Positions 7,232 to 39,484 of a stretch of DNA of 64,000 nt are shown here, piece after piece (position 1 is the stretch's first letter; each line of letters starts with the position of its first letter). The stretch lies in assembly GCA_964291405.2 (NCBI GenBank), contig OZ219926.1:1600001-1664000 (forward strand). Direction: 5' to 3'. Source of the stretch: Thermodesulfobacteriota bacterium. Lineage in GTDB: Bacteria; Desulfobacterota; Binatia; Bin18. Both the position numbers and the translations under genes were made by a program. The notes under the pieces were generated by a model. The model searched no databases. It saw only the letters and a list, made by a program, of their open reading frames with translations, and was not told where the DNA came from.

Positions 7232-7314
7232 GTGCCCGAGCCGCTCAGTACTAACCTTGCGGTCTGTAGAGGAATTTGTTTAATTCGCCGATATTTTAGA
7301 TGCAGGAGGACAGC

Positions 7315-7620
7315 ATGGCCGATTTTGTCAAAGTGGCCTCAACAGGTGACATCCCCGAAGGCGAAGGTCGGTGTTTTGAGGTCAACGATCAACAGGTAGC
7401 CATCTTCAATGTCGATGGCACCTTCTACGCCCTGGACAATGTGTGCCCGCACCAGGGCGGTCCATTGGGCGAGGGCGAGTTGGACGGCAATATGGTCACC
7501 TGCCCGTGGCACGCCTGGGATTTCGATGTCACGACCGGAGAAAACAGTGAAGACCCGGACGAAAAACAAGACACATATGAAGTCAAAGTGGACGGCGACG
7601 ATGTCTTAGTCGCTGTATGA
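7315..7620 (+). CDS. Rieske [2Fe-2S] ferredoxin (NirD/dioxygenase-ferredoxin-like)
   Basis: CPHQGG ... CPWH ligands; RBS AGGAGG. Confidence 0.9.
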   Translation: MADFVKVASTGDIPEGEGRCFEVNDQQVAIFNVDGTFYALDNVCPHQGGPLGEGELDGNMVTCPWHAWDFDVTTGENSEDPDEKQDTYEVKVDGDDVLVAV

Positions 7621-7630
7621 AGCAGCCCGT

Positions 7631-8707
7631 ATGGCGCTCTTTGAACGCATGCAGGCAGAAGACCACGAACAGGTGGTCTTCTGCACGGACCGCAACGCTG
7701 GCCTCACCGCCCTGATTGCCATCCACGATACAACCTTAGGACCCGCTTTGGGTGGCATCCGTATGCGGGCATATGCCAGTGAGGATGACGCGGTAACCGA
7801 TGTCCTGCGCCTCTCCCAGGCCATGACCTATAAAGCCTCCCTGGCCGGTCTGGAGTATGGCGGCGGTAAGGCAGTTGTCGTTTCCCCTGAGACACCTCCC
7901 AAAAGAGAGATAGTGTTTCGTGCGCTGGGCCGCGCCATAGAGTCTTTGGCGGGCCGTTATATTCCAACCGAAGACATGGGTACGACGACCGCAGACATTG
8001 AACACGTCCGGGCAGAGAGTCGGTTCGGGGTCGGACGAGCGGAAGCATTTGGCGGAGGCGGAGACCCCTCCCCCATGACGGCCTGGGGCATCTTCTGTGG
8101 CCTGCGGGCGTGTCTTGAAGAAACGGACGGCAAGGCCGAATTCCAGGGCTTGACCGTAGCCCTGCCCGGTCTGGGGAAAGTCGGCTACTCCCTGGCCCAA
8201 TACCTCCACCAAGCCGGAGTGCGGCTGATAGTCGCGGATGTGGATGCAGCCCGGGCCGACAAAGCCCGAACCGAGCTCAGCGCCGCGATTGTCGATCCGA
8301 CCGATATTCTGACTCAGCAGTGTGACATCCTCGCCCCCTGCGCCGCGGGTGGCATTTTCAATACGGAGACGATCCCCCAACTCCAGTGCCGGATTATCGG
8401 CGGTGGGGCTAACAATCAGTTACTCACCGAGGCTGACGGGGATGCGCTTCACGCGCGCGGCATTCTGTATGCGCCGGACTTTGCGATTAACGCCGGTGGA
8501 CTGATTAACGTCGCGGACGAGTTGGGTCCCGGTGGCTATCGTCGCGAGCGGGCCAAGGCCAAAACCGAGCAGATTTACTCCACCCTGAAAACGCTTTTTG
8601 CCCAAGCCAAGCAGCGAGACGGCCCACCCCATCGTCTGGCCGTTACTCTGGCCCAGGAACGCATCCGGGCTGTGCGGAATTTGCGGCGGCTGAATACGGC
8701 GGCGTGA
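7631..8707 (+). CDS. Glu/Leu/Phe/Val dehydrogenase (leucine dehydrogenase-like)
   Basis: IHDTTLGPALGGIRM, MTYK, GGGKAV, EDMGT, GLGKVG, ANNQL, INAGG. Confidence 0.92.
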   Translation: MALFERMQAEDHEQVVFCTDRNAGLTALIAIHDTTLGPALGGIRMRAYASEDDAVTDVLRLSQAMTYKASLAGLEYGGGKAVVVSPETPPKREIVFRALGRAIESLAGRYIPTEDMGTTTADIEHVRAESRFGVGRAEAFGGGGDPSPMTAWGIFCGLRACLEETDGKAEFQGLTVALPGLGKVGYSLAQYLHQAGVRLIVADVDAARADKARTELSAAIVDPTDILTQQCDILAPCAAGGIFNTETIPQLQCRIIGGGANNQLLTEADGDALHARGILYAPDFAINAGGLINVADELGPGGYRRERAKAKTEQIYSTLKTLFAQAKQRDGPPHRLAVTLAQERIRAVRNLRRLNTAA

Positions 8708-8761: not shown

Positions 8762-9835
8762 ATGAAAAGCGCTCTCTCTGCCTGGCTTGAAAGCCAGGGC
8801 GCATCGCTCACAGATGATCGCGGCGTTGAACTGCCGAACTCCTTCACCAACCCGCAAGACGAATACGCAGCCGTCTGTGAAAAGGTGGGGCTGATTGACC
8901 TGTCCTTTCGCACCCAGGTGAAATTCACGGGAGAAGATCGCAGCGATTTCCTGCAGGGCATGCTGTCCAACGATGTCAAAGCCCTGCGGCCCGGCGATGG
9001 CTGTCCAGCGACGCTGCTGACGGAGCAGGGACGGATTGTGGCGGACTTGCGTGTCTATGCCGAAGAGTCGGCAATTCTCCTCGACCTTGATACCCGTATC
9101 AAGGAGAAGACGGTTGGAGCCCTCGACCGTTTTATCATTGCCGACGATGTGGAGATCGAAGACCTGAGCGCCCATCAGGTGACCATTGCGGTCCAAGGCC
9201 CGACTGCGGCACAGGTCCTGGTGACAGCCGGTCTCTCTTCCTTGCCGGAGCGAAAATTACAGCATCGGGACACAACGATTGCAGATGTCCAGGTCCGCGT
9301 GATTCGCTCCGACCAGACCGGTAAGGGTGGCTATGAGTTCCACGTTCCCGGCGACCGGGCACCCGTCGTCTGGCAGGCCCTCGCTCAACTCGACGGGCTG
9401 CTTCCCGTCGGCCACACTGCGCTGAATATACTGCGGGTTGAGGCCGGCATTCCGTGGTATGGCCTCGATATGGACGAGGACAGAATCGTGCTGGAGGTTG
9501 GCCTCGACCAAGCCATTAGTTTTAATAAAGGCTGCTATCTGGGCCAAGAAGTCGTTGAGCGGGCTTCTGCACGCGGGCGTATGAATCGTCAACTCAGCGG
9601 GTTTCTGCTGCAAAATGAGGCGCAGGCTGCCTTGCCGACACGAGGCGACCGACTGGTGAAGGACGACAAAGAAGTCGGCTGGCTGACCAGCGTCACAACC
9701 TCCCCAACGCTGGGCCGGTCGATTGCCCTGGGCTATGTCCGGCGCGAACATGGCGAGCCGGGCACCCGGCTGCGGATTGACAGGCCGGATATGGACATGA
9801 TAGCCGAAGTGATCAAGTTACCGTTTCTACAGTAG
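8762..9835 (+). CDS. ygfZ: YgfZ/GcvT family folate-binding aminomethyltransferase-like protein
   Basis: KGCYLGQEVVER signature, LRVEAGIP. Confidence 0.8.
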   Translation: MKSALSAWLESQGASLTDDRGVELPNSFTNPQDEYAAVCEKVGLIDLSFRTQVKFTGEDRSDFLQGMLSNDVKALRPGDGCPATLLTEQGRIVADLRVYAEESAILLDLDTRIKEKTVGALDRFIIADDVEIEDLSAHQVTIAVQGPTAAQVLVTAGLSSLPERKLQHRDTTIADVQVRVIRSDQTGKGGYEFHVPGDRAPVVWQALAQLDGLLPVGHTALNILRVEAGIPWYGLDMDEDRIVLEVGLDQAISFNKGCYLGQEVVERASARGRMNRQLSGFLLQNEAQAALPTRGDRLVKDDKEVGWLTSVTTSPTLGRSIALGYVRREHGEPGTRLRIDRPDMDMIAEVIKLPFLQ

Positions 9836-9873
9836 ATATTACTCGTAGAGGCATATCACGACAGGAGGGATCA

Positions 9874-10014
9874 ATGGCACAACTGGGTAAACGCTATATG
9901 TGTGAAGAGTGCGGGACTGAGGTACTCTGCAACAAGCCGGGCGACGGTGCACTCAACTGCTGCGATAAAGAAATGCCGCTCAAGGAAGCCAAGCCGCTTC
10001 CATCGTCTGACTGA
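9874..10014 (+). CDS. Desulforedoxin-like metal-binding microprotein, 46 aa (absent from ORF track)
   Basis: RBS AGGAGG; MAQLGKRYMCEECGTEVLCNKPGDGALNCCDKEMPLKEAKPLPSSD; C-x2-C-x15-CC spacing. Confidence 0.85.
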   Translation: MAQLGKRYMCEECGTEVLCNKPGDGALNCCDKEMPLKEAKPLPSSD

Positions 10015-10050
10015 TACCGGTCTGTTGCAAACTGTACACCTAACAGTGAG

Positions 10051-10080
10051 GAGCGAGGGAAACCTCGCTCTTTCCTTTTC
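10051..10080 (+). terminator. Hairpin/terminator after the microprotein gene
   Basis: GAGCGAGG-GAAA-CCTCGCTC followed by TTTCCTTTT. Confidence 0.6.
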
Positions 10081-10088
10081 CGGGGGCT

Positions 10089-11636
10089 ATGTCTTCCGCA
10101 CCCCACACGGCTGACCTGCTGCTCTATGGTGGGCATGTTCTCACCTTTGACCCAAACCGGCCTGAAGCCCAGGCCATTGCTATTGCGGCAGGAAAAATCC
10201 TCGCGATTGGCACCGAGGAGGAACTGCGCCCCTTTGTCTCGCCGAAAACACAGGCCTTACCGTGCACCGGGAGAACGGTACTTCCAGGCTTCATCGACCC
10301 TCACCTGCATCTCTTTGCCTGGACGAGCCGCTACTGCGGTGCAGACCTGAGTGCAGCCCGATCAATTGCCGAAATCCAGTCTCAACTCCAGGCACGCCTG
10401 GAGACCCTCGGCTCGCAAGACTGGCTGCGCGGCTATGGCTATGACGAATTCTTTCTCCACGAGAAACGCCCTCCGAATCGACACGACCTTGACGCCATCT
10501 CGACCGAGCAGCCTATCATCCTGCGTCATCGGACCGGCCATGCTGCCGTTCTGAATGGCGAAGCGCTCCGGCAAACCGGCATCCACGCCCAATTCACCCC
10601 TCCAAAGGGCGGAAACGTCGAACGCGACGCCAGTGGAGAACCAACGGGCGTGGTCTACGAATTGGAGTCGTTTCTACGACCTGTCATACCTCCGCTCCCG
10701 GCACAGGAATTTCAGGCCGGATTACAACAGGTCAACAACGAATTACTCAGAAACGGGGTCTGTTCGTTTCACGACGCCAGCGCCGGCAATACGCTTGAGG
10801 CTCTCGGACGCTTCGCCGCCTTACGAGCCAACGGCGTCATACGTCCCCATGCAACCGTTATGGTCGGGGCTGAGGCGTTCTCTCAGGTGCGAGAGGCTGG
10901 CCTCACCGCCTTTGACCGGTCCGGCCAAGTTCGGCTTGGCAGTATTAAAATCATGCTGCATGAAAGCGGAGGCGAGTTGTATCCCGCGCCGGACGACCTG
11001 GCTGAAATGGTCTGGCAGGTGCATCGCCACGGGTTTCAGGTCGCCATCCATGCGGTTGAAGAAGTCCCCGTCTGCGCGGCCCTCGAAGCGATTCAGCAGG
11101 CGCTAGAACGGTTGCCTCGCCACGATCATCGTCATCGGATTGAACACTGCACGCTCTGTCCTCCACCGTTTCTCGACACCCTGGCCGAGACAGGCTGTGC
11201 GGTGGTGATGCAGCCGGGCTTTCTGCATTTTTATGGCGATAAATATGCAGCAGAAGTTGATACAGATGTGCACGATTGGCTGTACCGGGCAAAAAGCCTC
11301 CGGGATCACAACATTTCCGTTGTCGGCAGCTCAGATTGTCCGATCGCCCCACAGGCCCCATTGGTGGCGATTCAGGCTGCCGTTACGCGCCAGTCCCACA
11401 CTGGAATGGTTCTCAATCCCGCCGAACGTTTGTCCTGTCTTGAAGCGCTCAGTCTTTTCACTCAAGCAGGAGCCTGGGTCGGGTTTGAGGAAGATCAGAC
11501 CGGCAGCATCAGCCCTGGTATGCGTGCGGATGTGGTTATCCTCGACGGCGACCTGACGGGGCTCCCGGCTGAAGCGCTCAGCCGGGTAAACGTCCAGACA
11601 ACAATCATTGACGGCCAGATTGTCTATTCGGCATAA
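10089..11636 (+). CDS. Amidohydrolase (YtcJ / amidohydrolase_3 family)
   Basis: PGFIDPHLH, AIHAVEE, HRIEHC, GSSDCP, GSISPGMRADVVIL. Confidence 0.9.
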   Translation: MSSAPHTADLLLYGGHVLTFDPNRPEAQAIAIAAGKILAIGTEEELRPFVSPKTQALPCTGRTVLPGFIDPHLHLFAWTSRYCGADLSAARSIAEIQSQLQARLETLGSQDWLRGYGYDEFFLHEKRPPNRHDLDAISTEQPIILRHRTGHAAVLNGEALRQTGIHAQFTPPKGGNVERDASGEPTGVVYELESFLRPVIPPLPAQEFQAGLQQVNNELLRNGVCSFHDASAGNTLEALGRFAALRANGVIRPHATVMVGAEAFSQVREAGLTAFDRSGQVRLGSIKIMLHESGGELYPAPDDLAEMVWQVHRHGFQVAIHAVEEVPVCAALEAIQQALERLPRHDHRHRIEHCTLCPPPFLDTLAETGCAVVMQPGFLHFYGDKYAAEVDTDVHDWLYRAKSLRDHNISVVGSSDCPIAPQAPLVAIQAAVTRQSHTGMVLNPAERLSCLEALSLFTQAGAWVGFEEDQTGSISPGMRADVVILDGDLTGLPAEALSRVNVQTTIIDGQIVYSA

Positions 11637-11700
11637 AGAGTAAACGTGTCCAGCATCTCATGCTATATTGGAGGACACGTTTACTCTTTAAAGAACATGT

Positions 11701-12420
11701 ATGCCTTCTCCCGCAGTCCTGTACGAAAAAGACGGCAGTGTCGCCGTTGTCAGCCTCAACCGGCCTGACATGCTCAACGCCTATAACGTGGAGATGCGGG
11801 ACGATTTGCACGAAATTCTTCAGGCCGTCCGGGACGACCCTGAGGTCCGGGTCATGATCCTGCGCGGCGAAGGCCCGGCCTTCTCTACCGGCGGAGATGT
11901 TTCAGAGTTCGGTTCAGCGCCCTCTCCGGTGCGGGCGCGTGAAGTGCGCTGGCAACGGGATAACTGGGGGCTGCTGTTACGGCTGCCTCAGCCGACCATT
12001 GCAGCGGTCCACGGCTATACCGTCGGCGGCGGGATGGAAATGGCGCTGCTGTGTGATTTGTGCATTGCCGCGGACGATACGGTCTTTTTTCTACCGGAAA
12101 CCGGTCTGGGCATGATCCCTGGGGTAGGCGGGACGCAGACCGCGCCCCGTGCCATCGGGCTAGGGCGCGCCCTAGACATGGTATTCACCGGAAAGCGACT
12201 GAAGGCCGACCAAGCCCTCCAGATTGGCCTGGTAAATCAGGTGGTTCCCTTGGCTACCCTCTTGACTGAGGCCAAATCTCTGGCATACACACTGTCCCGT
12301 TGTAATCCAACAGTTGTAAGGCTGGCAAAACGGGCCGTCCGACAGGGCGCTGACCTAAATTTATCCGATGGCTTACGACTGGAACAAAATCTATTTGCAC
12401 TGGTAAAGGAGCAGGCATGA
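11701..12420 (+). CDS. Enoyl-CoA hydratase/isomerase
   Basis: LNRPDMLNA, FSTGGD, GGGME, LPETGLGMIPG (both catalytic Glu present). Confidence 0.9.
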   Translation: MPSPAVLYEKDGSVAVVSLNRPDMLNAYNVEMRDDLHEILQAVRDDPEVRVMILRGEGPAFSTGGDVSEFGSAPSPVRAREVRWQRDNWGLLLRLPQPTIAAVHGYTVGGGMEMALLCDLCIAADDTVFFLPETGLGMIPGVGGTQTAPRAIGLGRALDMVFTGKRLKADQALQIGLVNQVVPLATLLTEAKSLAYTLSRCNPTVVRLAKRAVRQGADLNLSDGLRLEQNLFALVKEQA

Positions 12421-13970
12421 ATACGTCACAGTTCATCGGTATTCCGGGCATGATGTTTCCGGACCAAGAGGTCCTGGCTTTCGAAGGTAACCGGTTGACC
12501 TATGGAACACTGCTGGATCGGGTCAAACGGCTGGCCAGCAGTTTGCGCGACCAAGGAATTCAGGCGGGTGATCGTGTGGCGATCTTGCAGACAAACTGCA
12601 ATCAGTACATCGAGGCCTATTATGCCACAGCGATGCTGGGTGCGACTTTTGTGCCGCTGAACTATCGGGCCAAGCCCCCGGAATTGGAATATATGATTAC
12701 CGCGGCGGAGACCAAGCTGCTGTTTGTGGGCGATCGCTATATCGACCTGGTCAATAGCCTCAAGCCCAATCTCGACTGCGTGGAAAAATATGTCACGATC
12801 GAAACGCGGCGTGACGATATGCTGCACTACGACGACTTTATTGAGCAGGGCTCGCCGGACATCGAAGAGGCAGAAGTCGATGAGGGCGACCTGTCCATCC
12901 TAATGTATACCAGTGGCACGACGTCTTTGCCCAAGGGTGTGATGCTGACCTACGGCGGATTCACCAACTACGTCATCGGCACCGTCGAGATGGCGGACGG
13001 GACCCCGCGCGGCACCTCGCTGCTGTGCGCGCCGCTCTATCATATTGCCGGCACGATGAACATCATGACCGCGCTGTGGAACGGCCGAAAGATCGCCATC
13101 CTGCGTCAGTTCGATACCAAGGAGTGGCTGGCGGCCGTTCAGAACGAGCAAGTGACGCACGCCTTTGTCGTGCCCACGATGATGAAACAGCTCATCGATC
13201 ACCCCGAGTTCTCGAACTATGATCTATCGAGTTTGCAGAACGTCTCCTATGGCGGCGCTCCCATGGCCTTTCCCGTCATTCGCAAGGCCATTGATATGTT
13301 CCCGGACTCGACCGGTTTTGTGAATGCCTTTGGCCAGACCGAAACAAATTCGACCCTGACCGTCCTCGGACCGGACGACCATAAGCTGAACGGCACGCCG
13401 GAAGAAGTCGAGCGCAACCTGAAGCGTCTGACCTCGGTCGGCAAACCCCTGCCCGACGTGGAAGTCCAGGTTCTTGATGACGATAATAAAGAGATGCCGG
13501 CCAATGAGATCGGCGAGGTAGTCATTCGCACCCCGCGCGTGATGAAGGGCTACGCCAATCAGGAAAGCGCGACCGCCGCCTTGTTGGATGAAAACGGCTG
13601 GCTGCATACTCGCGACATGGGTTATATCGACGAAGACGGCTATGTCTATCTGGTTGGCCGCAAGGACGACATCATCATTCGTGGCGGTGAAAACATTGCA
13701 CCGGCTGAAATCGAAGCGGTCCTGCACGCCCATCCGGCAGTCGACGAGGCGGCCATTATCGGTGTGCCTGACGTCGATTGGGGACAAAAGATCGTGGCCT
13801 TTGTCGCCCTCAAGCCAGGCCAGACAGCTACCGCGGACGAAGTTGGCGACTTCTGTAAGGAACGGCTGGCCAGCTTCAAGAAACCAGGGGAGATCAATTT
13901 CCTGGACGAGTTGCCGAAGAACCCGTTAGGCAAAGTCCTCAAGAAAGAGCTGAAAGCGCAGTACGAATAG
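12417..13970 (+). CDS. Acyl-CoA synthetase (AMP-forming, long-chain-fatty-acid-CoA ligase family)
   Basis: YTSGTTSLPKG, FGQTE, WLHTRD, GRKDDIIIRGGENI, LPKNPLGK; ATGA overlap with the upstream gene. Confidence 0.93.
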   Translation: MNTSQFIGIPGMMFPDQEVLAFEGNRLTYGTLLDRVKRLASSLRDQGIQAGDRVAILQTNCNQYIEAYYATAMLGATFVPLNYRAKPPELEYMITAAETKLLFVGDRYIDLVNSLKPNLDCVEKYVTIETRRDDMLHYDDFIEQGSPDIEEAEVDEGDLSILMYTSGTTSLPKGVMLTYGGFTNYVIGTVEMADGTPRGTSLLCAPLYHIAGTMNIMTALWNGRKIAILRQFDTKEWLAAVQNEQVTHAFVVPTMMKQLIDHPEFSNYDLSSLQNVSYGGAPMAFPVIRKAIDMFPDSTGFVNAFGQTETNSTLTVLGPDDHKLNGTPEEVERNLKRLTSVGKPLPDVEVQVLDDDNKEMPANEIGEVVIRTPRVMKGYANQESATAALLDENGWLHTRDMGYIDEDGYVYLVGRKDDIIIRGGENIAPAEIEAVLHAHPAVDEAAIIGVPDVDWGQKIVAFVALKPGQTATADEVGDFCKERLASFKKPGEINFLDELPKNPLGKVLKKELKAQYE

Positions 13971-13977
13971 TAAGCAG

Positions 13978-14002
13978 GGGCGTCCTTTTGGACGCCCTTT
14001 CT
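13978..14002 (+). terminator. Intergenic hairpin, weak terminator or stabiliser
   Basis: GGGCGTCC-TTTT-GGACGCCC followed by TTTCT. Confidence 0.5.
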
Positions 14003-14010
14003 GTTAAGGT

Positions 14011-14778
14011 TTGGGTGTGTCCGATCTGGTGTATGAGATTCAAGGGAAAGTGGCTTGGCTGCGCTTGTCGTGTCCGGGTCAGGGCAATCGGCTCACGCCC
14101 AGGATGGATCAGGAGATAGCATCCGTCTGCCAGGCCATCGAGGAGGCCGAGCCGGTCGAAATCGCTGTCCTGACCGGCTCGGTCCACAGCTTTTGTGAGG
14201 GCCTGACACAAACGGCCAACACCGCGCAGAGAATTCGGGAGCAGTTCGGTTCCATCCAGTGCGTCGAGGCGCTTGCGGCCATCACAAAACCGACGCTGGC
14301 GGTTCTCAATGGCAACGCGTTCGGACTCGGGCTGGAGTTGGCCCTCGCCTGCGACCTCCGTCTGGCCGTTTCGACGGCCCGGTTCAGCCTCCCCCAGGTT
14401 ACCGAGCAGATGATTCCTTTTGGCGGAGGGACGCAGCGCCTGCCGCGTGTAGTCGGACAGGCCAAGGCGTTGGAGATCATCCTCACCGGCAAACAGCTTG
14501 ACGCCGCTGAGGCGTATCGCATCGGACTGGTCAACGAAGTGATTGCCGCGGACGATCTTTTGACCCGTGTTGACGAGGTCCTGTCCGGTCTGTTAGGGAA
14601 AGGCCCTGTCGCTTTACGACTCGGTAAAGAGGCGGTATACAAAGCAATGGACCTGACGCTCGACCAGGGGGTGCGGTTGGAAGAAGACTTGTATGCCCTT
14701 CTCCAGACAACCCAGGATCGGGCCGAGGGCGTGGAATCTTTCTTAGCCAAGCGGAAACCTCGATTTACCGGACGCTAA
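14011..14778 (+). CDS. Enoyl-CoA hydratase/isomerase, divergent (start may be GTG at 14017)
   Basis: KPTLAVLNG, GLELALACDLR, GGGTQRLPRVVG, KRKPRFTGR. Confidence 0.88.
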   Translation: MGVSDLVYEIQGKVAWLRLSCPGQGNRLTPRMDQEIASVCQAIEEAEPVEIAVLTGSVHSFCEGLTQTANTAQRIREQFGSIQCVEALAAITKPTLAVLNGNAFGLGLELALACDLRLAVSTARFSLPQVTEQMIPFGGGTQRLPRVVGQAKALEIILTGKQLDAAEAYRIGLVNEVIAADDLLTRVDEVLSGLLGKGPVALRLGKEAVYKAMDLTLDQGVRLEEDLYALLQTTQDRAEGVESFLAKRKPRFTGR

Positions 14779-14800
14779 GAGAAAAACAGGAGGCAACAGT

Positions 14801-14917
14801 ATGGCAACCCAACTCGGGAAAATGTATCTGTGTGGAAGCTGCGGTGTGCAGGTCATCGTGACCAAAGGTGGCGATGGCTCGCTCAAGTGCTGCGGAGCCG
14901 AGATGCAGAAAAAATAG
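14801..14917 (+). CDS. Desulforedoxin-like metal-binding microprotein, 38 aa (absent from ORF track)
   Basis: RBS AGGAGG; MATQLGKMYLCGSCGVQVIVTKGGDGSLKCCGAEMQKK; C-x2-C-x15-CC spacing. Confidence 0.85.
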   Translation: MATQLGKMYLCGSCGVQVIVTKGGDGSLKCCGAEMQKK

Positions 14918-14978: not shown

Positions 14979-15008
14979 AGGGCACCGCTTGCAGGGTGCC
15001 CTTTTTTT
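14979..15008 (+). terminator. Rho-independent terminator
   Basis: AGGGCACC...GGTGCCCT followed by a T tract. Confidence 0.8.
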
Positions 15009-15133
15009 ATCACGACGCCCAGAAGCGACCTTGCAAGACCGCTAGACACTCAGATAGCATGGCCTGCACTGCTCAGGGTCATGACAAATAACCGCTCGCA
15101 TGAATCCCGAGTGAAGCGTGGAGGTTGACAGCC

Positions 15134-15430
15134 ATGCCGGCCCCTATTTCCGCCGATGAAATACAGTCCCGCATTGTCGCGGCCCTACCTGACGCGCAGG
15201 TGCACATTCGCGATTACACTGGTGGTGGGGATCACTACGAAGCCGTTGTCGTGTCCGCGGCGTTCGACGGCAAGAATGCCGTCGCCCGGCACCGCCTGGT
15301 GTATGGCGCCCTCCAGGAGGCTATGGTTGAACGCATTCATGCCTTAGCCCTCAAGACTATGACCCCACAAGAATTTGAGGCCGATACCCGGCAGTCCGGC
15401 CTGGTGAATATCGAAACGCACAAATCATAA
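15134..15430 (+). CDS. bolA: BolA family protein
   Basis: [25 protein letters not shown]; adjacent to grxD. Confidence 0.9.
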
Positions 15431-15455: not shown

Positions 15456-15779
15456 ATGGCAGACGGCGTACAAGCGCATATTGACGAGACCGTGAAGAAC
15501 AACAAAGTCCTCATCTATATGAAGGGCAATCGCACCTTCCCGATGTGCGGCTTCTCAGCCGCAACCATTCAGATTTTCGACTCTTTGGGTATGCCGTACG
15601 AGACCGTCGACGTATTGCAGGACCCTGCCGTACGCGACGGCATCAAGCGCTATTCAAACTGGCCGACCATTCCGCAGGTGTATGTGAACGGCGAATTTAT
15701 CGGTGGCTGCGACATCATCCAGGAAATGCACAGCCGCGGCGAGCTTGAGCCCATCGTGCGGGCTGCCCTCGAAGGCTAA
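15456..15779 (+). CDS. grxD: Monothiol glutaredoxin Grx4
   Basis: CGFS, WPTIPQVY, GGCD. Confidence 0.95.
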   Translation: MADGVQAHIDETVKNNKVLIYMKGNRTFPMCGFSAATIQIFDSLGMPYETVDVLQDPAVRDGIKRYSNWPTIPQVYVNGEFIGGCDIIQEMHSRGELEPIVRAALEG

Positions 15780-15826: not shown

Positions 15827-16033
15827 ATGCGCTACAAGATTGCCCTGTACCAGTCTGAAGAAGGCTATAGCGTTTCCTGCCCTGGTCTCCCGGGTTGCTG
15901 GTCGCAAGGCGCAACCGAAGCGGAGGCCCTGGAGAATATTCAGGATGCCATCAGAGAATATCTCACCGCTGTCGAAGAGTTACTTCAGGACACGCCCAAC
16001 ACCGAAGTACGAGAAGTAGACATTGCCGTGTAA
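15827..16033 (+). CDS. hicB: HicB family antitoxin (short form)
   Basis: YSVSCPGLPGCWSQGATEAEALENIQDAI. Confidence 0.9.
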   Translation: MRYKIALYQSEEGYSVSCPGLPGCWSQGATEAEALENIQDAIREYLTAVEELLQDTPNTEVREVDIAV

Positions 16034-16035
16034 CG

Positions 16036-16248
16036 ATGCCAAAGCTGTCTGGGGTCAACCATCAGCAGGCCATCCGCGCGTTGGAGAAGTCTGGTTTTCG
16101 TATCATTCGCCAAGGGAATCACGTCGTGATGTCAGACGGCGTCCGCATTCTCACTATCCCACGACATAATCCTGTCCATGCCATTACCATGGGCGGTATC
16201 GTACGGGACGCGGGGTTCACCGTTGAAGAGTTCCGAAGATTATTGTAA
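16036..16248 (+). CDS. hicA: HicA family mRNA interferase toxin
   Basis: ALEKSGFRIIRQGNHVVM ... TIPRH ... IVRDAG. Confidence 0.88.
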   Translation: MPKLSGVNHQQAIRALEKSGFRIIRQGNHVVMSDGVRILTIPRHNPVHAITMGGIVRDAGFTVEEFRRLL

Positions 16249-21653: not shown

Positions 21654-23447
21654 TTATTCCGGCAGGGCAAATACGAGCAACGCGCTGCCCTTACTCGTCA
21701 GCGGTGGCTCGCCAGCCAGGGTGACGGCCAAACCTCCGCCACCGCTGGGGATGGCCACATACTGCCGCCCTCCGGCCTTATAGGTGATGGGCTGAGCGCG
21801 CATGGATGAGCCGGTCTGAAATTGCCATAACAGCTCGCCGGTCGCGTCATCAAAGGCCAAGGCTAAGCCCTCAAGGTTACCGGAAAACACCAGACCACCA
21901 GCAGTCGCAAGGGCACCGCCCATCATGGGATATTCGTCCTGATAGCGCCATTTGATCTCGCCGGTGGAGGGGTCTATGGCAGACAGATGGCCATAGGATG
22001 AGCCGTCATCGCCCTGGGTTTTTCCCGGTCCGCCACCCCAGAATGGGATGCCCTTGATAAAGATGGACGCTGACTTCTTCATCTGCCAGCAGCTCTCCAC
22101 CACCGGTACATACATCAGCTTGGTCAACGGGCTATAGGCCGCGGTGTACGAGCCGTTTTTTCCACCAACGGAACCGGGGCAGATGAATTCCTTGCCTTCT
22201 GCAGTGGGAACGAACTGAGGATCGACAATCGGCCGGCCAGCCTCATCCAGCCCTTTTGACCAATTCAGCTTGTCGACATATTGGGTGCCGTGCAGATACT
22301 TGCCCGAGGTGCGGTCCAGGACATAGACGTAGCCGTTTCGGTTGGGCTGGGCCAGGGCTTTGACCGTCGCCCCACTACGTTCGACATTGACCAGGAACAG
22401 ATCGGTGTTGCCGTCATAGTCCCAGATATCATGAGGCGTGAACTGGAAATACCATTTGATCTCCCCCGTATCCGGGTCAAGGGCCAGTACGGAATCCGCG
22501 TAGAGGTTATCCCCTTTGCGGACATCGCCGTTCCAGTCCGGGGCGGTATTGCCCGTCGCCCAATACAGCAAATCCTCATCAGGGTCGTATGATCCCGTCA
22601 CCCAGGTTGGGGCACCGCCATGTTTCCAGGAGTCGCCGGCCCAGGTCTCGGAGCCCGGCTCACCGGCTTCCGGGATGGTATAGCGACGCCACTTCCGTTC
22701 GCCTGTGTTGATATCATAGGAATCAATATAGCCGCGGATACCATATTCGCCCCCGGCGATGCCGACAATCAGGTTATCCCGGACGACCAGGGGGGCAACG
22801 GTCGCACTGAATCCGTCGCTATGACGGTCCATCTCAGTGTTCCAGACAACGGCCCCGGTTTTGCGATTCAGAGCAACCACATGGGCATCGAGCGTTGCCA
22901 TAAAGATCAGATCTCCGGCAACGGCCGCCCCTTTATTCGACGGCCCGCAGCACACGCGCATGTCGTCCGGTAGCTCGTGCTCATAGCGCCACAGCAACTC
23001 ACCCGTAACCGCATCCAGGGCAAAGAGATGGTTGTATGCAGCAGTCAGATAGATGATCCCATCGGCAACAATAGGCGAGGCCTGCATTTGGGACGGGATA
23101 CCGGTCTGGAACATCCAGGCCGCCTTCAGGTTTTTGACATTATCCCGGTTAATGTCCTTGAGTGGGCTGAACCGCCAACCAGCGTAATTGCCACCGTACA
23201 TCAGCCAATAGTTTGGGTCGTCCGTCCCCTGGAGCAGGTGGTCCTGAGTGATGGATTGAAAAGTATATCCCTCGAGGCCGCCGTTCGAGGCTGGACTGGC
23301 TGCGGCGGAGGCGGCCGCCGGCTGATTCTTGGCGGGTTCGGGTTGAGTATCCGCACGCCCGCCAACCGCCTGAGCGTGGTGGGGGACGCCGAGCAGCGTC
23401 AGACAACACATCCCTATGAGCATTCCCTGCAACCAATATGTGTGCAT
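21654..23447 (-). CDS. PQQ-dependent dehydrogenase, methanol/ethanol family (type I, no fused heme)
   Basis: RBS AGGAGG; signal peptide; RFSPL, vicinal CC, GGEYG, QFTPHDIWDYDG, RNGY, tryptophan-docking repeats. Confidence 0.93.
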   Translation of the reverse strand: MHTYWLQGMLIGMCCLTLLGVPHHAQAVGGRADTQPEPAKNQPAAASAAASPASNGGLEGYTFQSITQDHLLQGTDDPNYWLMYGGNYAGWRFSPLKDINRDNVKNLKAAWMFQTGIPSQMQASPIVADGIIYLTAAYNHLFALDAVTGELLWRYEHELPDDMRVCCGPSNKGAAVAGDLIFMATLDAHVVALNRKTGAVVWNTEMDRHSDGFSATVAPLVVRDNLIVGIAGGEYGIRGYIDSYDINTGERKWRRYTIPEAGEPGSETWAGDSWKHGGAPTWVTGSYDPDEDLLYWATGNTAPDWNGDVRKGDNLYADSVLALDPDTGEIKWYFQFTPHDIWDYDGNTDLFLVNVERSGATVKALAQPNRNGYVYVLDRTSGKYLHGTQYVDKLNWSKGLDEAGRPIVDPQFVPTAEGKEFICPGSVGGKNGSYTAAYSPLTKLMYVPVVESCWQMKKSASIFIKGIPFWGGGPGKTQGDDGSSYGHLSAIDPSTGEIKWRYQDEYPMMGGALATAGGLVFSGNLEGLALAFDDATGELLWQFQTGSSMRAQPITYKAGGRQYVAIPSGGGGLAVTLAGEPPLTSKGSALLVFALPE

Positions 23448-23710
23448 ATACTTCCCTCCTTTACGTGTGAAATTCCACGTAAACCCTCGGTATAGCGCGG
23501 TCGAAAAGTACTTGCTTTTCAGTATCCGGTCAAGGAAGGCAACAAGAGGAACGATGGCCCTGTTTTGATCCAGAATACGCTGAGTGCAGGCTGCGGTACT
23601 CCTCTCATACGAACACCAGCAGCTCTGAAAAGCCCTCCGTCTTGTCTGTCCCAAAACTCTGCTATACACCCCCCAATAAGGCCAGAGAGAGGGAGCAATA
23701 GAGGACCATC

Positions 23711-24541
23711 ATGAAGTACTATCCACACATCGACTGTGCCAGAGCCATTCTCCTATTGCATTCGATTCTTCTTTTTAGCGCATGTGGCGGACAGGACAAT
23801 AACGGTCAGACAGCCCCGCAGGCTCCAGCCAGACAGGAGACATCAGAGCAGAAGGCCGACCCACCTCCGACCGAACCACCTGCTCCGGCGCCGGCAGACT
23901 CGGACGCACGAGGCACTCTTGTCGGACGCGTGGTGCTTGACGGGGATATGCCACAGCCACAGGCGCTGACGGTCAGTAAGGATGTTGAAGTGTGTGGGAA
24001 GACAGAAAAATTTCCCGAAGCGCTGCTCGTCGGTCCGGACAGGGGCATCAAAAACGCGGTTGTCTTCCTCCGGGCGGTTGCCAGTGGAATCTCTCTCTCA
24101 CGACCCGAGTCGAATCCAACGATTGACCAGCGTGACTGTGTCTACGCTCCCCACGTCCTGCTTGTTCCGGCCGGGGCCACGGTTGATATCAAAAACAGTG
24201 ACGGCATCCTGCACAATATTCACACCTATAGCGAGAAAAATCCGGCTTTTAATACGGCCCAGCCGAAGTTCAAAACCGTCGTCTCGAAAACCTTTACCCA
24301 GCCGGAGATGATTCGCGTGACCTGTGATGTACACGACTGGATGACCGCCTGGATCGTCGTGCAAGATCACCCCTATTACGCCCTCACCAACGCAACTGGG
24401 GCCTTTCGGCTCAGCGATGTTCCCGCAGGCGAGTACGAACTGAAGGTCTGGCATGAGGAACTCGGAGAGCACTCTCGTTCGGTATCAGTCACGGCGAATC
24501 AAGAGTCCTCTGTGGAAATCACGCTCGCCCATGCTGGCTGA
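23711..24541 (+). CDS. Lipoprotein with carboxypeptidase-regulatory-like / cupredoxin-like domain
   Basis: Lipobox FSAC; DQRDCVYAPHV, NSDGILHNIH, CDVHDWM, WHE. Confidence 0.75.
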   Translation: MKYYPHIDCARAILLLHSILLFSACGGQDNNGQTAPQAPARQETSEQKADPPPTEPPAPAPADSDARGTLVGRVVLDGDMPQPQALTVSKDVEVCGKTEKFPEALLVGPDRGIKNAVVFLRAVASGISLSRPESNPTIDQRDCVYAPHVLLVPAGATVDIKNSDGILHNIHTYSEKNPAFNTAQPKFKTVVSKTFTQPEMIRVTCDVHDWMTAWIVVQDHPYYALTNATGAFRLSDVPAGEYELKVWHEELGEHSRSVSVTANQESSVEITLAHAG

Positions 24542-24611
24542 ACAGAAACAGATAAGATATGGAGAATACCCTCGCGTCGCACGGGGAGAAGGCGCTGCGA
24601 GATAGGGTTCT

Positions 24612-25202
24612 ATGCAGTTTCCTATACATTCGCTGTCGGTTTTTCGGATCGTCCTGCTTATTGTAGTATTCCTCGCCGGGCTGTCGGCAGTGCAGTATCG
24701 CCCCGATGTGAGCGGTCGGGTGTGGCGAGCCGGCAAAGCAGCGTGGTGGGATTACAAACTGCTCGACCTGGGGCTGACGGGTTGGGGACGATCTCCCAAA
24801 CAGCCGATTGCCTTCAGTCATGCACTCCACGCCGGTGAATATGGCCTGGACTGCCTGTACTGCCACAGTGCGGCGCGCGTCTCACCAGTGGCCCACGTCC
24901 CGCCGGTCCAGACGTGTATGGGCTGCCACGCCAGGCCAACACCGAATCCGGAAATCAAGAAAATCCAGACTTACTGGAAAGACCAAGAGCCGATTCCGTG
25001 GGTTCGTGTGCACGCCCTGCCCGCTTTCACCCGCTTTAATCACAAGCGCCATGTCCGGGCCGGGGTCGCCTGCCAGTCCTGTCACGGTGAGGTCCAACGC
25101 ATGCAACGCGTGGAACAGGTGTCTTCGCTCAAGATGGGCTGGTGCGTGAGCTGTCATGATGCCCATCAAGCGAGTAAAGACTGCCTGGTGTGTCACTATT
25201 GA
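24612..25202 (+). CDS. actA: Alternative complex III pentaheme cytochrome c subunit
   Basis: N-terminal TM helix; QPIAFSHALHAG; five CxxCH motifs (CLYCH, CMGCH, CQSCH, CVSCH, CLVCH). Confidence 0.88.
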   Translation: MQFPIHSLSVFRIVLLIVVFLAGLSAVQYRPDVSGRVWRAGKAAWWDYKLLDLGLTGWGRSPKQPIAFSHALHAGEYGLDCLYCHSAARVSPVAHVPPVQTCMGCHARPTPNPEIKKIQTYWKDQEPIPWVRVHALPAFTRFNHKRHVRAGVACQSCHGEVQRMQRVEQVSSLKMGWCVSCHDAHQASKDCLVCHY

Positions 25203-25218
25203 GGTGGAAGAACTGAAC

Positions 25219-28146
25219 ATGGCAAACGGACTCGACAGAAGAAATTTTCTAAAACTGCTTGGGGCGAGTGCAGCCGCACCAGTCGTCGGTTGTGCCTCAA
25301 AGCCGGTGGAAACCATTATTCCCTATGTGGTTCAGCCCGAGGAGATCACGCCAGGGGTGGCCACATACTACGCTACCGTCTGCCAGGAATGCCCGGCCGG
25401 CTGTGGCATGGTCGTGCGGACCAGAGAGGGGCGGGCCGTCAAAGTCGAAGGCAATCCCTCCCACCCGGTCAATCAGGGGACGTTGTGCGCACGCGGACAG
25501 GCGTCCTTGCAGGGACTGTACAATCCGGATCGTATCCGCCAGCCGCTGTATCGTAATGAAGCCGGAGAACTCACCCCTCTATCGTGGTCGGAGGCGGAGG
25601 CCCTGCTGGCCGGACGCCTGCAAAAAATCCGGGCGGAGGGCCAGGCGGACAAGATTACGTTTCTCGCCGGCCAGCTCCCGGACAGTGTGTATCGGTTGGC
25701 CACGCAGTGGCTTGAGACCCTGGGCTCAAATCGCCTGGTGACCTATGAACCGTTTGGTTTCGAGGCGTTGAGACAGGCGAATCGAGTCTGCTTTCAGCAG
25801 GCTTCGATTCCAACCCATGATCTGACCAAGGCCCGATTTCTCATTGGCCTGGGGGCTGATTTTCTGGAGACGTGGCGTTCCCCGACGTACTATGCCAGGG
25901 CATTTAGCCAGATGCGGAGTCCAACGGCGGCGGGGAAATTCGTCCAGGTCGAATCCCGCATGTCGCTCACCGGAGCGAATGCGGACGAATGGATTGCGAT
26001 CAAGCCGGGTCGGGAAGCCTTTTTCGCGCTGGGGCTGGCGCATCTGATTCTCCCGGACAGTGCAGTTCCTGCTGAAGAAAAGACGCGGCTCAGCCAACTG
26101 CTGGAGCCCTATTCGCCGGACCAGGTTGCTTCGGTGACGGAGGTGCCGGTCGAGACGATCAAACGACTGGCCCAGGGATTTGTCAGCCACGGGCCGAGCC
26201 TGGCCCTCGGAGGTGGTATAGCTACAAGTTCCCGGCAGGAGACGGCCAGCCTGATTGCGGTCAATCTGCTGAATTATATCGCAGGCAATATCGGCGAGAC
26301 CGTCCATTTTCATGAAGTCCAAGAGCGGCCGCAGGCCAGCTCGTATGCAGCGCTGTTATCCCTGATTGACGAGATACGGCGCGGCGCAGTACCTCTCCTC
26401 CTACTTGCTAACACCAATCCTGCCTTTAGCTTACCCCCATCTTTGGGTCTTGCTGAGGCGCTCACCCACGTACCTTTTGTAGTTAGCTTTTCGTCCTTCC
26501 CGGATGAAACAACCGAACAGGCAGACCTGATTTTACCCGATCATACGCCCCTGGAGAGCTGGGGAGACTCCCATCCCGAGGCTGGCGTGTATGGTCTGAT
26601 GCAGCCCGTCATGCCACCCGTGTTTGAGACCCAAGCGCTGGGCGAGACCTTATTGTCTGTCGCCACACAGGTTGACGAGGCGCTCTCGGAATCGTTGTCC
26701 TGGAAGAACTTTTTCGAGTATTTGCAGGCGTTGTGGAAAGAACGGCACGGCGAGAGTGGTGAGCCGGGCGACTTTGACGCCTTCTGGCGTCACGCCCTGC
26801 AACAAGGTGGGGTATGGCAGGCCAGAGAGCCGCTCCCGGTTCAGCTCTCCTCAGCTGTCTTTGAGGTAAGCTTTTCCGAGCCGACCTTTGACCGGGCAGG
26901 CGAAGACGCACTGACGTTCATTGCCTACCCCTCGTCACGCTATTACGACGGCCGCGGCGCCAACAAGCCCTGGCTGCAAGAGCTGCCCGACCCCATCACG
27001 CAGGCGGTCTGGGATTCCTGGCTTGAGATTCACCCCGAGACCGCCGAACGCCTGGGGATCGCGGAGGGCGACCTGCTGACGATCACCTCCCCACATGGGA
27101 CTATCGAGGCGAGCGCCTATTTCTACGCTGGGCTGCGGCGTGATGCGGTGGCTATGCCGATCGGCCTGGGCCATAGCGGTTATGGTCGTTACGCCCAGGG
27201 ACGCGGCTCCAACCCGGTCCAGTTGCTTTCGGCCCAACCCGAAACGGCCTCGGGCGGTTTCCCCTGGCTTTCGACCACAGTCCGACTCACTCGAACCGGC
27301 AAACGGACGCCGCTGGTCACAACGGACGGCAGTCGCCAGCAGCTCGACCGCGGTATCGCCCAAGCGGTGACGGCAGGACAGCACAACGAACCGCACCACG
27401 CCGAGCACCCCGTCCGCGATATGTACCCGGAGGTGGAGTACGCCGAGTACCGCTGGGGCATGAGTATCGATCTGTCGGCCTGCATCGGCTGTGGGGCCTG
27501 CGTTACGGCCTGCTATGCGGAAAATAATATCCCAGTGGTGGGCGAGGACATGGTGTCACAGGGCCGGGAAATGTCCTGGCTGCGGATTGAGCGCTATTTC
27601 GAGGAGTCACAGCCAGGAGCGGACGCTCCCGAAGTCCGCTTTGCTCCTATGCTGTGTCAGCACTGCGGCAACGCGCCCTGCGAGCCGGTCTGCCCGGTGT
27701 ATGCCACCTATCACAACCCGGAGGGACTCAACGCCCAGATCTATAACCGTTGTGTCGGCACTCGATATTGCGCCAACAACTGTTCCTATAAGGTGCGACG
27801 TTTTAACTGGGGCGAGGCGGACTGGCCGGCACCGCTCAACCTTCAACTCAACCCGGATGTCACCATACGTGAATCGGGCGTCATGGAGAAATGCACCTTT
27901 TGTGTCCAGCGCATTCAGGAGGGCAAAGACCGCGCCAAAGACGAAGACCGTCCGGTGCGCGACGGCGAGGTCACGCCAGCCTGTGCCCAGACCTGCCCGA
28001 CACAGGCCCTGACGTTTGGCAATCTGCAAGACCCCACTAGCCGCGTTTCTCTGCAATCGCACGACCCCCGCGGGTATAAAGTCTTCGAGTCATTGAACAC
28101 CAGACCCGCGATTACCTATCTCAAAAAAGTCCGCCGCAATACGTAA
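25219..28146 (+). CDS. actB: Alternative complex III molybdopterin-oxidoreductase-like / Fe-S fusion subunit
   Basis: Tat motif DRRNFLK; ANKPWLQELPDP; CIGCGACVTAC, CQHCGNAPCEPVCP, CVGTRYCANNC, EKCTFC. Confidence 0.92.
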   Translation: MANGLDRRNFLKLLGASAAAPVVGCASKPVETIIPYVVQPEEITPGVATYYATVCQECPAGCGMVVRTREGRAVKVEGNPSHPVNQGTLCARGQASLQGLYNPDRIRQPLYRNEAGELTPLSWSEAEALLAGRLQKIRAEGQADKITFLAGQLPDSVYRLATQWLETLGSNRLVTYEPFGFEALRQANRVCFQQASIPTHDLTKARFLIGLGADFLETWRSPTYYARAFSQMRSPTAAGKFVQVESRMSLTGANADEWIAIKPGREAFFALGLAHLILPDSAVPAEEKTRLSQLLEPYSPDQVASVTEVPVETIKRLAQGFVSHGPSLALGGGIATSSRQETASLIAVNLLNYIAGNIGETVHFHEVQERPQASSYAALLSLIDEIRRGAVPLLLLANTNPAFSLPPSLGLAEALTHVPFVVSFSSFPDETTEQADLILPDHTPLESWGDSHPEAGVYGLMQPVMPPVFETQALGETLLSVATQVDEALSESLSWKNFFEYLQALWKERHGESGEPGDFDAFWRHALQQGGVWQAREPLPVQLSSAVFEVSFSEPTFDRAGEDALTFIAYPSSRYYDGRGANKPWLQELPDPITQAVWDSWLEIHPETAERLGIAEGDLLTITSPHGTIEASAYFYAGLRRDAVAMPIGLGHSGYGRYAQGRGSNPVQLLSAQPETASGGFPWLSTTVRLTRTGKRTPLVTTDGSRQQLDRGIAQAVTAGQHNEPHHAEHPVRDMYPEVEYAEYRWGMSIDLSACIGCGACVTACYAENNIPVVGEDMVSQGREMSWLRIERYFEESQPGADAPEVRFAPMLCQHCGNAPCEPVCPVYATYHNPEGLNAQIYNRCVGTRYCANNCSYKVRRFNWGEADWPAPLNLQLNPDVTIRESGVMEKCTFCVQRIQEGKDRAKDEDRPVRDGEVTPACAQTCPTQALTFGNLQDPTSRVSLQSHDPRGYKVFESLNTRPAITYLKKVRRNT

Positions 28147-28165
28147 CGACGCTGACTACAATTCC

Positions 28166-30055: not shown

Positions 30056-30611
30056 GCATTACGCCGGCACGGGCATCCGTAACCGGTCATGGAGTCTCGT
30101 CAGTCTCGCTCTGGGTCTGGGGTTCTTCTACGTGACCTTTGCCCATGCTCTGCCCTGGAATGACGATATGTATTGGCAGCCCGAACTCGAGGCTGGAACC
30201 GCCGCTCAACCGCCCGTGGCCAACAGCGTGCCAACAACGGGCATTGAGCCGCCTATGTCGTCGCGTATTACCGAGCGCATAAGGGCCGGCCTGCGCGTAC
30301 GGAATCCGGTTGAACCCACCCCCCAGTCCATCCAGAACGGAGAAGGATTATTTCGGATTTACTGCACGATGTGCCACGGCGAGCAGGGTAGAGGCGACGG
30401 CCAGATGGTTGGCAAGGTCGTTCCCTCTTCGGATCTTCATACAGAGAGAATCAGAAACCAAAAAGACGGGTATTTGTACGCCACCATCCGGAGTGGTGGA
30501 CTGGTGATGCCTGCCTATCAACACGCGCTTTCAACCGCAGAGCGGTGGGACCTTGTGAATTACGTCCGCCATCTCCAACAACAGGAAGCCCAGCGGGATC
30601 AGTCACAATGA
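30039..30611 (+). CDS. actE: Alternative complex III monoheme cytochrome c
   Basis: DMYWQP, CTMCH, MPAY, RWDLVNYVRHLQ. Confidence 0.85.
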   Translation: MAKVGRHYAGTGIRNRSWSLVSLALGLGFFYVTFAHALPWNDDMYWQPELEAGTAAQPPVANSVPTTGIEPPMSSRITERIRAGLRVRNPVEPTPQSIQNGEGLFRIYCTMCHGEQGRGDGQMVGKVVPSSDLHTERIRNQKDGYLYATIRSGGLVMPAYQHALSTAERWDLVNYVRHLQQQEAQRDQSQ

Positions 30612-39413: not shown

Positions 39414-39484
39414 TAAGATGTCAACGTCCGCAACGACTGAAGAGTTACAATCTGAGCGCCAAATCCGTAGCGGGAGAGGAAGGC

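Follow-up and report, generated by a model that had tools for sequence, protein, structure and literature searches.

The 64,000-bp window analysed here (positions 1,600,001 to 1,664,000 of contig OZ219926.1, from a Thermodesulfobacteriota bacterium of the Binatia; G+C content 58.2%) carries two very small genes, Dx46 and Dx38, which encode desulforedoxin-fold microproteins of 46 and 38 amino acids (aa). The genes lie on either side of an amidohydrolase gene, a crotonase gene (ECH_A), a gene for an acyl-coenzyme A (acyl-CoA) ligase of the ANL superfamily and a second crotonase gene (ECH_B), an order that the original prediction had read from the sequence alone and that open reading frames (ORFs) and Pfam matches confirmed. 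Both are ATG ORFs with their own AGGAGG ribosome-binding site (Table 1). The description of the two as unannotated needs qualifying. Their exact sequences are public, as 'hypothetical protein' or under desulforedoxin-type names ('Desulfoferrodoxin, N-terminal domain' and, in one NCBI record, 'desulforedoxin').

Dx46 and Dx38 both have the cysteine spacing C-x2-C-x15-CC, and when all 64,000 bases were scanned in six frames for C-x2-C-x13-17-CC, only these two ORFs were returned. Both scored above the Pfam curated cut-off of 23 bits for PF06397 (Desulfoferrod_N), with 24.1 bits for Dx46 and 29.6 bits for Dx38, and both fell under the cut-off of 36.05 bits for the NCBIfam model TIGR00319 (desulf_FeS4), with 17.9 and 21.9 bits. 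A profile of the Dx46 family aligned to desulfoferrodoxin (1vzg) and desulforedoxin (1cfw) with E of about 1e-3. The desulforedoxin spacing and fold proposed for the pair are thus supported. In line with the absence claimed earlier, none of the 60 window ORFs of at least 75 aa gave a superoxide reductase domain, and the conserved neighbours gave none either.

A protein search with Dx46 returned 137 clusters of 46-47-aa proteins, of which the 120 listed were 72-96% identical to the query, and nearly all of these Dx46-like proteins end in LKEAKPLPSSD. In an alignment of 35 Dx46 sequences the invariant positions included C10, C13, C19, C29, C30 and L42-D46, so that C19 is a fifth invariant cysteine beyond the four ligand positions; the Cys4 ligand spacing was invariant in these 35 and in 40 Dx38 sequences. 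Orthologues of Dx38 were present in 65 of the 80 genomic loci described below, were 38-39 aa long in 64, and had ...QVIVTKGG.G..KCCG..M(E/Q)QKK in common. Where Dx38 reads QVIVTK, Dx46 reads ...EVLCNK..., and it has the C-terminal tail in addition. Judged by these differences, the two are distinct paralogues and not one duplicated gene. The entropies at codon positions 1, 2 and 3 were 0.45, 0.29 and 1.19 bits for Dx46 (80 loci), 0.32, 0.10 and 1.21 bits for its tail, and 0.45, 0.29 and 1.12 bits for Dx38. Because the third position is free and the second nearly fixed, both genes are, by their codon pattern, under purifying selection acting on the proteins, and the two predicted small genes can be regarded as real.

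Next, the surroundings of Dx46 were compared between genomes. Scanning species-representative genomes with Dx46 gave at least 571 matching stretches, of which the best 80 loci were kept, a choice that biases the set to close relatives. Nearly all 80 are from Binatia metagenome-assembled genomes (MAGs), a few having other labels, and in one Binatia MAG chromosome (L001) the Dx46 stretch is 100% identical to that of the window. Synteny was counted in the 63 loci whose flanks reach at least 6.5 kb downstream and 1.3 kb upstream. The genes follow one another on one strand in a constant order, GcvT-like, Dx46, (amidohydrolase), ECH_A, ligase, ECH_B and Dx38, with median intergenic gaps of 44-71 nt. 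The GcvT-like gene is a member of this block that the original prediction had missed. The two microproteins are the most conserved products of the block, with Dx46 above all of the enzymes (Table 1). No conserved genes were found beyond the block edges in the flanks of the Binatia loci, and neither a conserved oxidoreductase nor a thiolase was found in the block itself. One locus (L054) contains the entire block with disrupted reading frames, and another (L074) has only a C-terminal remnant of the ligase. Four loci titled 'uncultured Enterobacteriaceae bacterium' (L002, L005, L007 and L024, from third-party assemblies) carry a Binatia-type block with Dx46 85-100% identical, and these labels look wrong.

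Table 1. Features of the block in the window, with their occurrence in the 63 Binatia-type loci used for synteny and their median identity to the window.
Feature	Position	Strand	Description	Occurrence	Median identity
GcvT-like gene	8762-9835	+	GcvT-family folate-binding protein with YgfZ/CAF17 signature; first gene of the Binatia-conserved block	59/63, directly upstream of Dx46	44%
Dx46 ribosome-binding site	9863-9868	+	AGGAGG, 5 nt upstream of the ATG at 9874
Dx46	9874-10014	+	ATG ORF, 46 aa, desulforedoxin-fold microprotein	query	82% (80 loci)
Hairpin 3' of Dx46	10048-10073	+	11 bp, -27.4 kcal/mol, z = -2.1; weak U tract
Amidohydrolase	10089-11636	+	Amidohydro_3 metal-dependent hydrolase (Pfam, 267.7 bits); optional block member	52/63	35%
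ECH_A	11701-12420	+	Crotonase (Pfam ECH); stop overlaps ligase start by 4 nt	60/63	61%
Ligase	12417-13970	+	ANL-superfamily AMP-binding ligase, acyl-CoA synthetase type (Pfam AMP-binding; NF004837, 496 vs 476 bits)	59/63	59%
ECH_B	14011-14778	+	Crotonase (Pfam ECH)	61/63	46%
Dx38 ribosome-binding site	14788-14793	+	AGGAGG, 7 nt upstream of the ATG at 14801
Dx38	14801-14917	+	ATG ORF, 38 aa, desulforedoxin-fold microprotein, C-terminus QKK	61/63	71%
Intrinsic terminator	14979-15009	+	Closes the operon after Dx38; 8-bp stem 14979-15002, 6 G-C pairs, T7
BolA	15125-15430		Downstream of Dx38	17/63 (BolA and glutaredoxin adjacent), near relatives of the window only
CGFS monothiol glutaredoxin	15456-15779		Downstream of BolA

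A hairpin had been predicted after each of the two small genes. The one after Dx38 is a canonical terminator. The one after Dx46, with its weak U tract, was not called by an intrinsic-terminator scan, and in 16 of 78 loci at most 30 nt separate Dx46 from the following gene, too few for such a hairpin. The hairpin of the window may serve as a partial terminator or attenuator, and it is not a conserved feature. Among the enzymes, ECH_B reads LPQV where ECH_A reads LPE. We take this Gln to occupy the position of the second catalytic Glu of enoyl-CoA hydratases, and ECH_B may not be a plain hydratase.

Relatives of Dx46 also occur as longer proteins. These gave 151 matches in the Dx46 search, mostly of 90-111 aa, in which two desulforedoxin-like halves stand in tandem and the second half has the LKEAKPLPSSD end. 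With an E cut-off of 0.001, an exhaustive profile search returned 1,143 representative clusters, of which 218 were at 1e-10 or below, and its best 150 are all at most 142 aa long. Some fusions, such as P0241, P0242, P0258 and P0312, retain both Cys4 sites and match PF06397 twice. Subtype F1 (about 96-97 aa) has other residues at all four ligand positions of both halves, while subtype F2 (about 102-104 aa) keeps two cysteines in the N-terminal half and usually the equivalent of C19. Both subtypes are without C-x2-C and CC, yet they retain GKRY, E.L..K.G.G and LKEAKPLPSSD; these cysteine-poor forms matched no Pfam or NCBIfam family and only unnamed clusters in the ESM Atlas. When the tail was stripped, the C-terminal half was Dx46-like rather than Dx38-like in 184 of 185 fusions, and the N-terminal half was Dx38-like in 37/37 F1 proteins and in 9/13 of the Cys4-retaining fusions.

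An AlphaFold2 model of the F1 protein P0147 forms one body (predicted local distance difference test, pLDDT, 93.9; predicted template modelling score 0.82), with a three-strand pattern repeated in both halves and low confidence, about 60, only in the last ~8 residues, which are the tail. Foldseek found no PDB structure similar to the fused-form model at E of 0.001 or below (best 1.3), which is uninformative for a comparison with desulforedoxin, a protein of two 36-residue chains. Since natural two-domain fusions exist and the separate genes co-occur, Dx46 and Dx38 probably act as one unit, a heterodimer, as the original prediction had thought possible. Other architectures were seen as well. 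In P0250 the two halves stand in reverse order behind a hydrophobic N-terminus, and some proteins, among P0295, P0306 and P0340, join an unrelated, helical-looking N-terminal extension of ~65 aa to a single tail-bearing domain. A fusion of Dx46 to the amidohydrolase (P0124, 408 aa, one member on one contig) was rejected as an artefact of sequencing or read-through, its C-terminal part looking frameshifted.

Across 35 split sequences and 60 fused ones the tail LKEAKPLPSSD did not vary, and it always forms the extreme C-terminus. Its conservation is at the amino-acid and not the nucleotide level, and even in distant relatives with an otherwise different tail the last residue is always D or E. 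Because most fused relatives have lost the cysteine ligands and kept the tail, we argue that the family can do without metal in its conserved function and that the invariant tail is the part that carries this function. The pattern speaks against the zinc or iron centre of the module suggested earlier as the element that has been conserved for function.

The same loss bears on whether the two peptides are genuine desulforedoxins, that is, Fe(Cys)4 one-electron carriers in oxidative stress or for a redox enzyme, which stand beside acyl-CoA genes by descent only. Membership of PF06397, the exact ligand spacing and the name 'desulforedoxin' given to one NCBI cluster member are what this explanation would predict. 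However, close homologues without the cysteines have kept the tail and the ligase neighbour, neither a superoxide reductase in the window nor a conserved oxidoreductase in the block was found, both peptides are under the desulf_FeS4 cut-off, and the organism encodes components of aerobic respiration. We regard a redox role as highly unlikely.

To see which neighbour is constant outside the Binatia, the fused protein P0226 was compared by tblastn with annotated plasmids, giving 19 records (Rhodococcus 12, Streptomyces 3, Sphingobium 2, Sphingomonas 1, Mycobacterium 1), a set biased to cultured Actinomycetota and sphingomonads. The contexts of 17 were taken; H1 and H8 were omitted as near-duplicates of H2 and H7. 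An ANL ligase (named as class I adenylate-forming, AMP-binding or fatty-acid-CoA ligase) adjoins the fused gene in 12 of the 13 annotated loci, on the same strand and 2-59 nt away, either upstream or downstream, and tblastn placed a ligase directly downstream of the fused gene in three of the four unannotated loci. Overall the ligase is adjacent in 15/17 plasmid loci, a raw count, from Actinomycetota and Alphaproteobacteria. The other neighbours vary by locus and include CoA-transferases, acyl-CoA dehydrogenases and thiolases with their own OB-fold partners; a crotonase is present in 6/13 annotated stretches and an amidohydrolase near 4/17 of the copies. The ligase is the one constant companion across three phyla, and neither the crotonases nor the GcvT-like gene is constant in the plasmids. 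The suggestion of an accessory module for the ligase or the crotonases is thereby largely supported for the ligase, which is linked to the fused gene in 15/17 plasmid loci and to the separate peptides in 59/63 Binatia loci, and is not supported for the crotonases. Tabulating the neighbours of homologues had been proposed as a test of that suggestion, and in most of the plasmid loci the homologues adjoin a ligase of the same clade as that of the window.

These loci also bear on a possible role of the peptides in iron or Fe-S trafficking, together with the GcvT/YgfZ-like protein encoded upstream and the BolA and monothiol glutaredoxin encoded downstream. All three flanking genes are of Fe-S trafficking types. 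The GcvT-like protein has Pfam GCV_T and GCV_T_C domains, passes TIGR03317 (77.7 bits against a cut-off of 49) and lies next to Dx46 in most Binatia loci; two loci keep it with Dx46 and the amidohydrolase where the ligase module is lacking (L046 and L079, see below); and BolA and the CGFS glutaredoxin follow Dx38 in the window and in 17/63 loci. Against this, the adjacency of BolA and glutaredoxin is limited to near relatives of the window, the 13 plasmid loci with annotation list no GcvT-like gene and tblastn returned none from L092 and L094-L097, and the cysteine-poor fused forms could not ligate iron. In comparisons with known structures the GcvT-like protein scored 137 bits against a true aminomethyltransferase (1yx2) and 33 bits against E. 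coli YgfZ (1nrk), which places it much closer to the former type. A trafficking role is therefore very unlikely in our estimate.

The plasmid ligases adjoining the fused genes scored 282-339 bits against the window ligase, at 33-39% identity, while two non-adjacent ANL ligases of the same loci scored 155-166 bits. By this measure the partner ligases form one clade with the window ligase. They also have a segment in common after motif A5, LGP[DE]DH[RK]...RL.S.G, which in the window ligase is LGPDDHK...RL at about residues 317-338 and which is gapped in the two non-partners. In its strict form, GP[DE][DE]H[RK], the motif was present in 46/48 full-length Binatia orthologues, in 10/12 plasmid partners (11/12 with a looser pattern) and in 0/2 non-partners. 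When the Binatia flanks were searched for more ANL paralogues without a partner, only fragments of the block's own ligase came up. In an AlphaFold2 model of the window ligase (mean pLDDT 81.6), residues 305-318 are below 50 and residues 328-337 form a helix. The low-confidence residues, which include the segment start, are compatible with a partner-dependent loop and are not evidence for one. In fatty acyl-AMP ligases an insertion specific to these enzymes, in the N-terminal domain, affects CoA use (PMC8460268). The passages on it do not give the position of that insertion, and its equivalence to the ligase segment is not claimed.

We propose that Dx46 and Dx38 are the separately encoded halves of a small two-domain family that accompanies this ANL ligase clade. 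Each peptide would fold as a desulforedoxin-like knuckle with a Cys4 site for zinc or iron that is structural, not redox-active, and the two would pair as a desulforedoxin-type heterodimer, or as a pseudo-dimer where they are fused. The heterodimer would bind the ligase encoded between the two genes as a non-catalytic accessory subunit, in a role like that of MbtH-like proteins. The ligase is taken as the partner because it is the only constant neighbour across the three phyla. The flexible acidic tail of Dx46 (...KPLPSSD-COOH) would be the working element, most likely reaching the ligase surface, where it might dock on the basic clade-specific segment after motif A5, and its contact would support the folding, activity or gating of the ligase. 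The fold family, the conservation, the pairing (by co-occurrence and by fusion) and the linkage to one ligase clade in three phyla are read from the sequences; from these we infer that the pair binds the ligase, how its tail acts and which metal it holds. We put the probability of such a heterodimeric, non-catalytic partner of one ANL ligase clade, with a structural metal site, at about 0.55.

Several observations weigh against this proposal. Within the Binatia block neither peptide gene touches the ligase gene, there being a crotonase gene between them on each side. In L046 (10001-11765) and L079 (1475-3218) the GcvT-like gene, Dx46 and the amidohydrolase are followed by ATP-sulfurylase and adenylylsulfate (APS) kinase, and the module of ECH, ligase, ECH and Dx38 does not lie within 10 kb, which shows that Dx46 can occur apart from the ligase module. 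Among the 17 plasmid loci, two lack a ligase within 4 kb, L092 having flavin adenine dinucleotide (FAD) oxidoreductases instead and L097 Amidohydro_2 and crotonases, and on such acyl-CoA-rich plasmids the figure of 15/17 stands as a raw count. The negative control for the ligase segment consists of two sequences only. The N-terminal half of F2 proteins has diverged and is not assignable to Dx38, 68/86 scoring slightly higher as Dx46. Finally, the strictly conserved acidic terminal residue fits a role as substrate or carrier at least as well as docking.

Such a carrier would work as follows. The ligase adenylates the C-terminal Asp or Glu of the tail, or acylates a tail residue, so that a pathway intermediate is tethered; the crotonases modify the tethered intermediate and the amidohydrolase releases it. 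The tethering would resemble that in the LysW system. The tail is flexible in the model, always terminal, and always ends in D or E; a globular zinc-ribbon-like domain with an acidic C-terminal extension is the layout of LysW; the amidohydrolase recurs in most Binatia loci and near some plasmid copies; and Dx46 is more conserved than every enzyme of the block. On the other hand, the genes around the plasmid copies encode ordinary enzymes of CoA-thioester metabolism, an indication that free acyl-CoA is the currency, and the window ligase has the A8 and A10 motifs usual for CoA ligases. There is no ATP-grasp enzyme in the block, and the LysW models TIGR01206 and PF21344 gave nothing for the window peptides and only sub-threshold scores for P0258 (15.2 against a cut-off of 53.2, and 16.1 against 27). 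We consider a carrier or acceptor role unlikely. A little less probable again is its fuller form, a new protein-based carrier in which the ANL ligase loads the ...SSD end, intermediates stay tethered to a desulforedoxin-fold scaffold of 5-10 kDa and the amidohydrolase releases the product. If true, it would be an ANL-driven analogue of the LysW system in Binatia, Actinomycetota and Pseudomonadota.

The evidence that links the accessory subunit to the ligase would apply equally to a regulatory pseudo-substrate, in which the dicarboxylate end of the tail fills the carboxylate or pantetheine site of the ligase and inhibits it until the substrate arrives. The terminal Asp or Glu offers two carboxylates, a group that ANL enzymes presumably bind. 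A constitutive 1:1 operon partner would be unusual for an inhibitor, although inhibition and activation are not separable from these data. We judge this version improbable and prefer an accessory subunit that supports the ligase.

The remainder of the window holds genes outside the conserved block. A soluble Rieske ferredoxin and an ELFV-family amino-acid dehydrogenase (7300-8707) precede the block here and in near relatives only; the best NCBIfam match of the dehydrogenase is the tryptophan dehydrogenase ScyB, under the cut-off. After the glutaredoxin gene comes a HicB/HicA-like toxin-antitoxin pair (15827-16248), consisting of a 68-aa ORF (15827-16033) and an ORF with a HicA_toxin domain. 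The region 21657-31792 encodes a pyrroloquinoline quinone (PQQ)-dependent dehydrogenase, c-type cytochromes and an alternative complex III-like cluster (a molybdopterin/Fe-S subunit and NrfD/ActD), and it is because of these genes that aerobic respiration is ascribed to the organism. A betaine/carnitine/choline transporter of the BCCT type lies at 39347-41050. The region 34565-61558 has five TonB-dependent receptor genes, an unusually dense set, with ExbB/ExbD, two TonB genes and an H+-pyrophosphatase.

The usual view of stand-alone acyl-CoA synthetases of the FadD/4CL type is that they need no partner, and a dedicated small partner for one clade of them, if true, would alter it. It would be the second obligate microprotein companion in the adenylate-forming superfamily, after the MbtH-like proteins, could explain failures to express such ligases in active form, and would give a function to 'hypothetical proteins' of about 100 aa in many catabolic clusters. 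The family ranges from soil Binatia to cultured Rhodococcus, Mycobacterium, Streptomyces and sphingomonads, and it shows a metal-knuckle fold that loses its metal and keeps its role. No description of an association between such peptides and a ligase was found in the full-text literature searched, subscription journals being outside its coverage, in agreement with the original prediction. The pairing with the ligase, the series of split, fused and metal-free forms, and the tail appear to be undescribed, while the fold and the existence of small partners of adenylate-forming enzymes were already known.

Four known systems can be compared with the one proposed here. Desulforedoxin (Dx of Desulfovibrio gigas; 12 chains in six PDB entries) and the N-terminal domain of desulfoferrodoxin resemble Dx46 and Dx38 in PF06397 membership, in the C-x2-C-x15-CC spacing, in size and probably in forming a two-chain unit. 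Desulforedoxin, however, is one homodimeric protein, whereas Dx46 and Dx38 are two distinct, co-occurring paralogues. Dx46 has an extra invariant cysteine and an 11-residue invariant tail, some relatives have no cysteines, and the genes are linked to an ANL ligase with no superoxide reductase found nearby.

LysW carries alpha-aminoadipate on its C-terminal Glu. LysW and ArgW share with the family a tiny zinc-ribbon-like domain, a flexible C-terminal extension and an invariant acidic last residue, but are served by an ATP-grasp ligase where an ANL ligase is found here, and the neighbours here are CoA-dependent. DUF35 proteins, with an OB-fold and a zinc ribbon, are partners of SCP-x-type thiolases and are likewise small, zinc-ribbon-bearing accessory proteins in acyl-CoA catabolic clusters. 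In the plasmid loci, however, separate OB-fold genes stand beside the thiolases, so that they are a different component, and DUF35 models matched neither the window peptides nor eight family members.

The likeness to MbtH-like or DUF35 proteins that had been drawn earlier is therefore not borne out by sequence, since the MbtH model also gave no match, either to the window peptides (E up to 0.1) or to the eight family members (E up to 1). As an analogy of role it is closer. MbtH-like proteins are small partners of the adenylation (A) domains of nonribosomal peptide synthetases. Like the partner proposed here, they are highly conserved, non-catalytic and encoded beside an ANL adenylate-forming enzyme, and the family as a whole tracks the enzyme clade. 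The fold is different, the partner here is a stand-alone ligase of the acyl-CoA synthetase type instead of a synthetase A domain, and the Dx family is either split or fused into two domains with a terminal tail. By this comparison, the Dx46/Dx38 pair most likely works in the manner of MbtH-like proteins.

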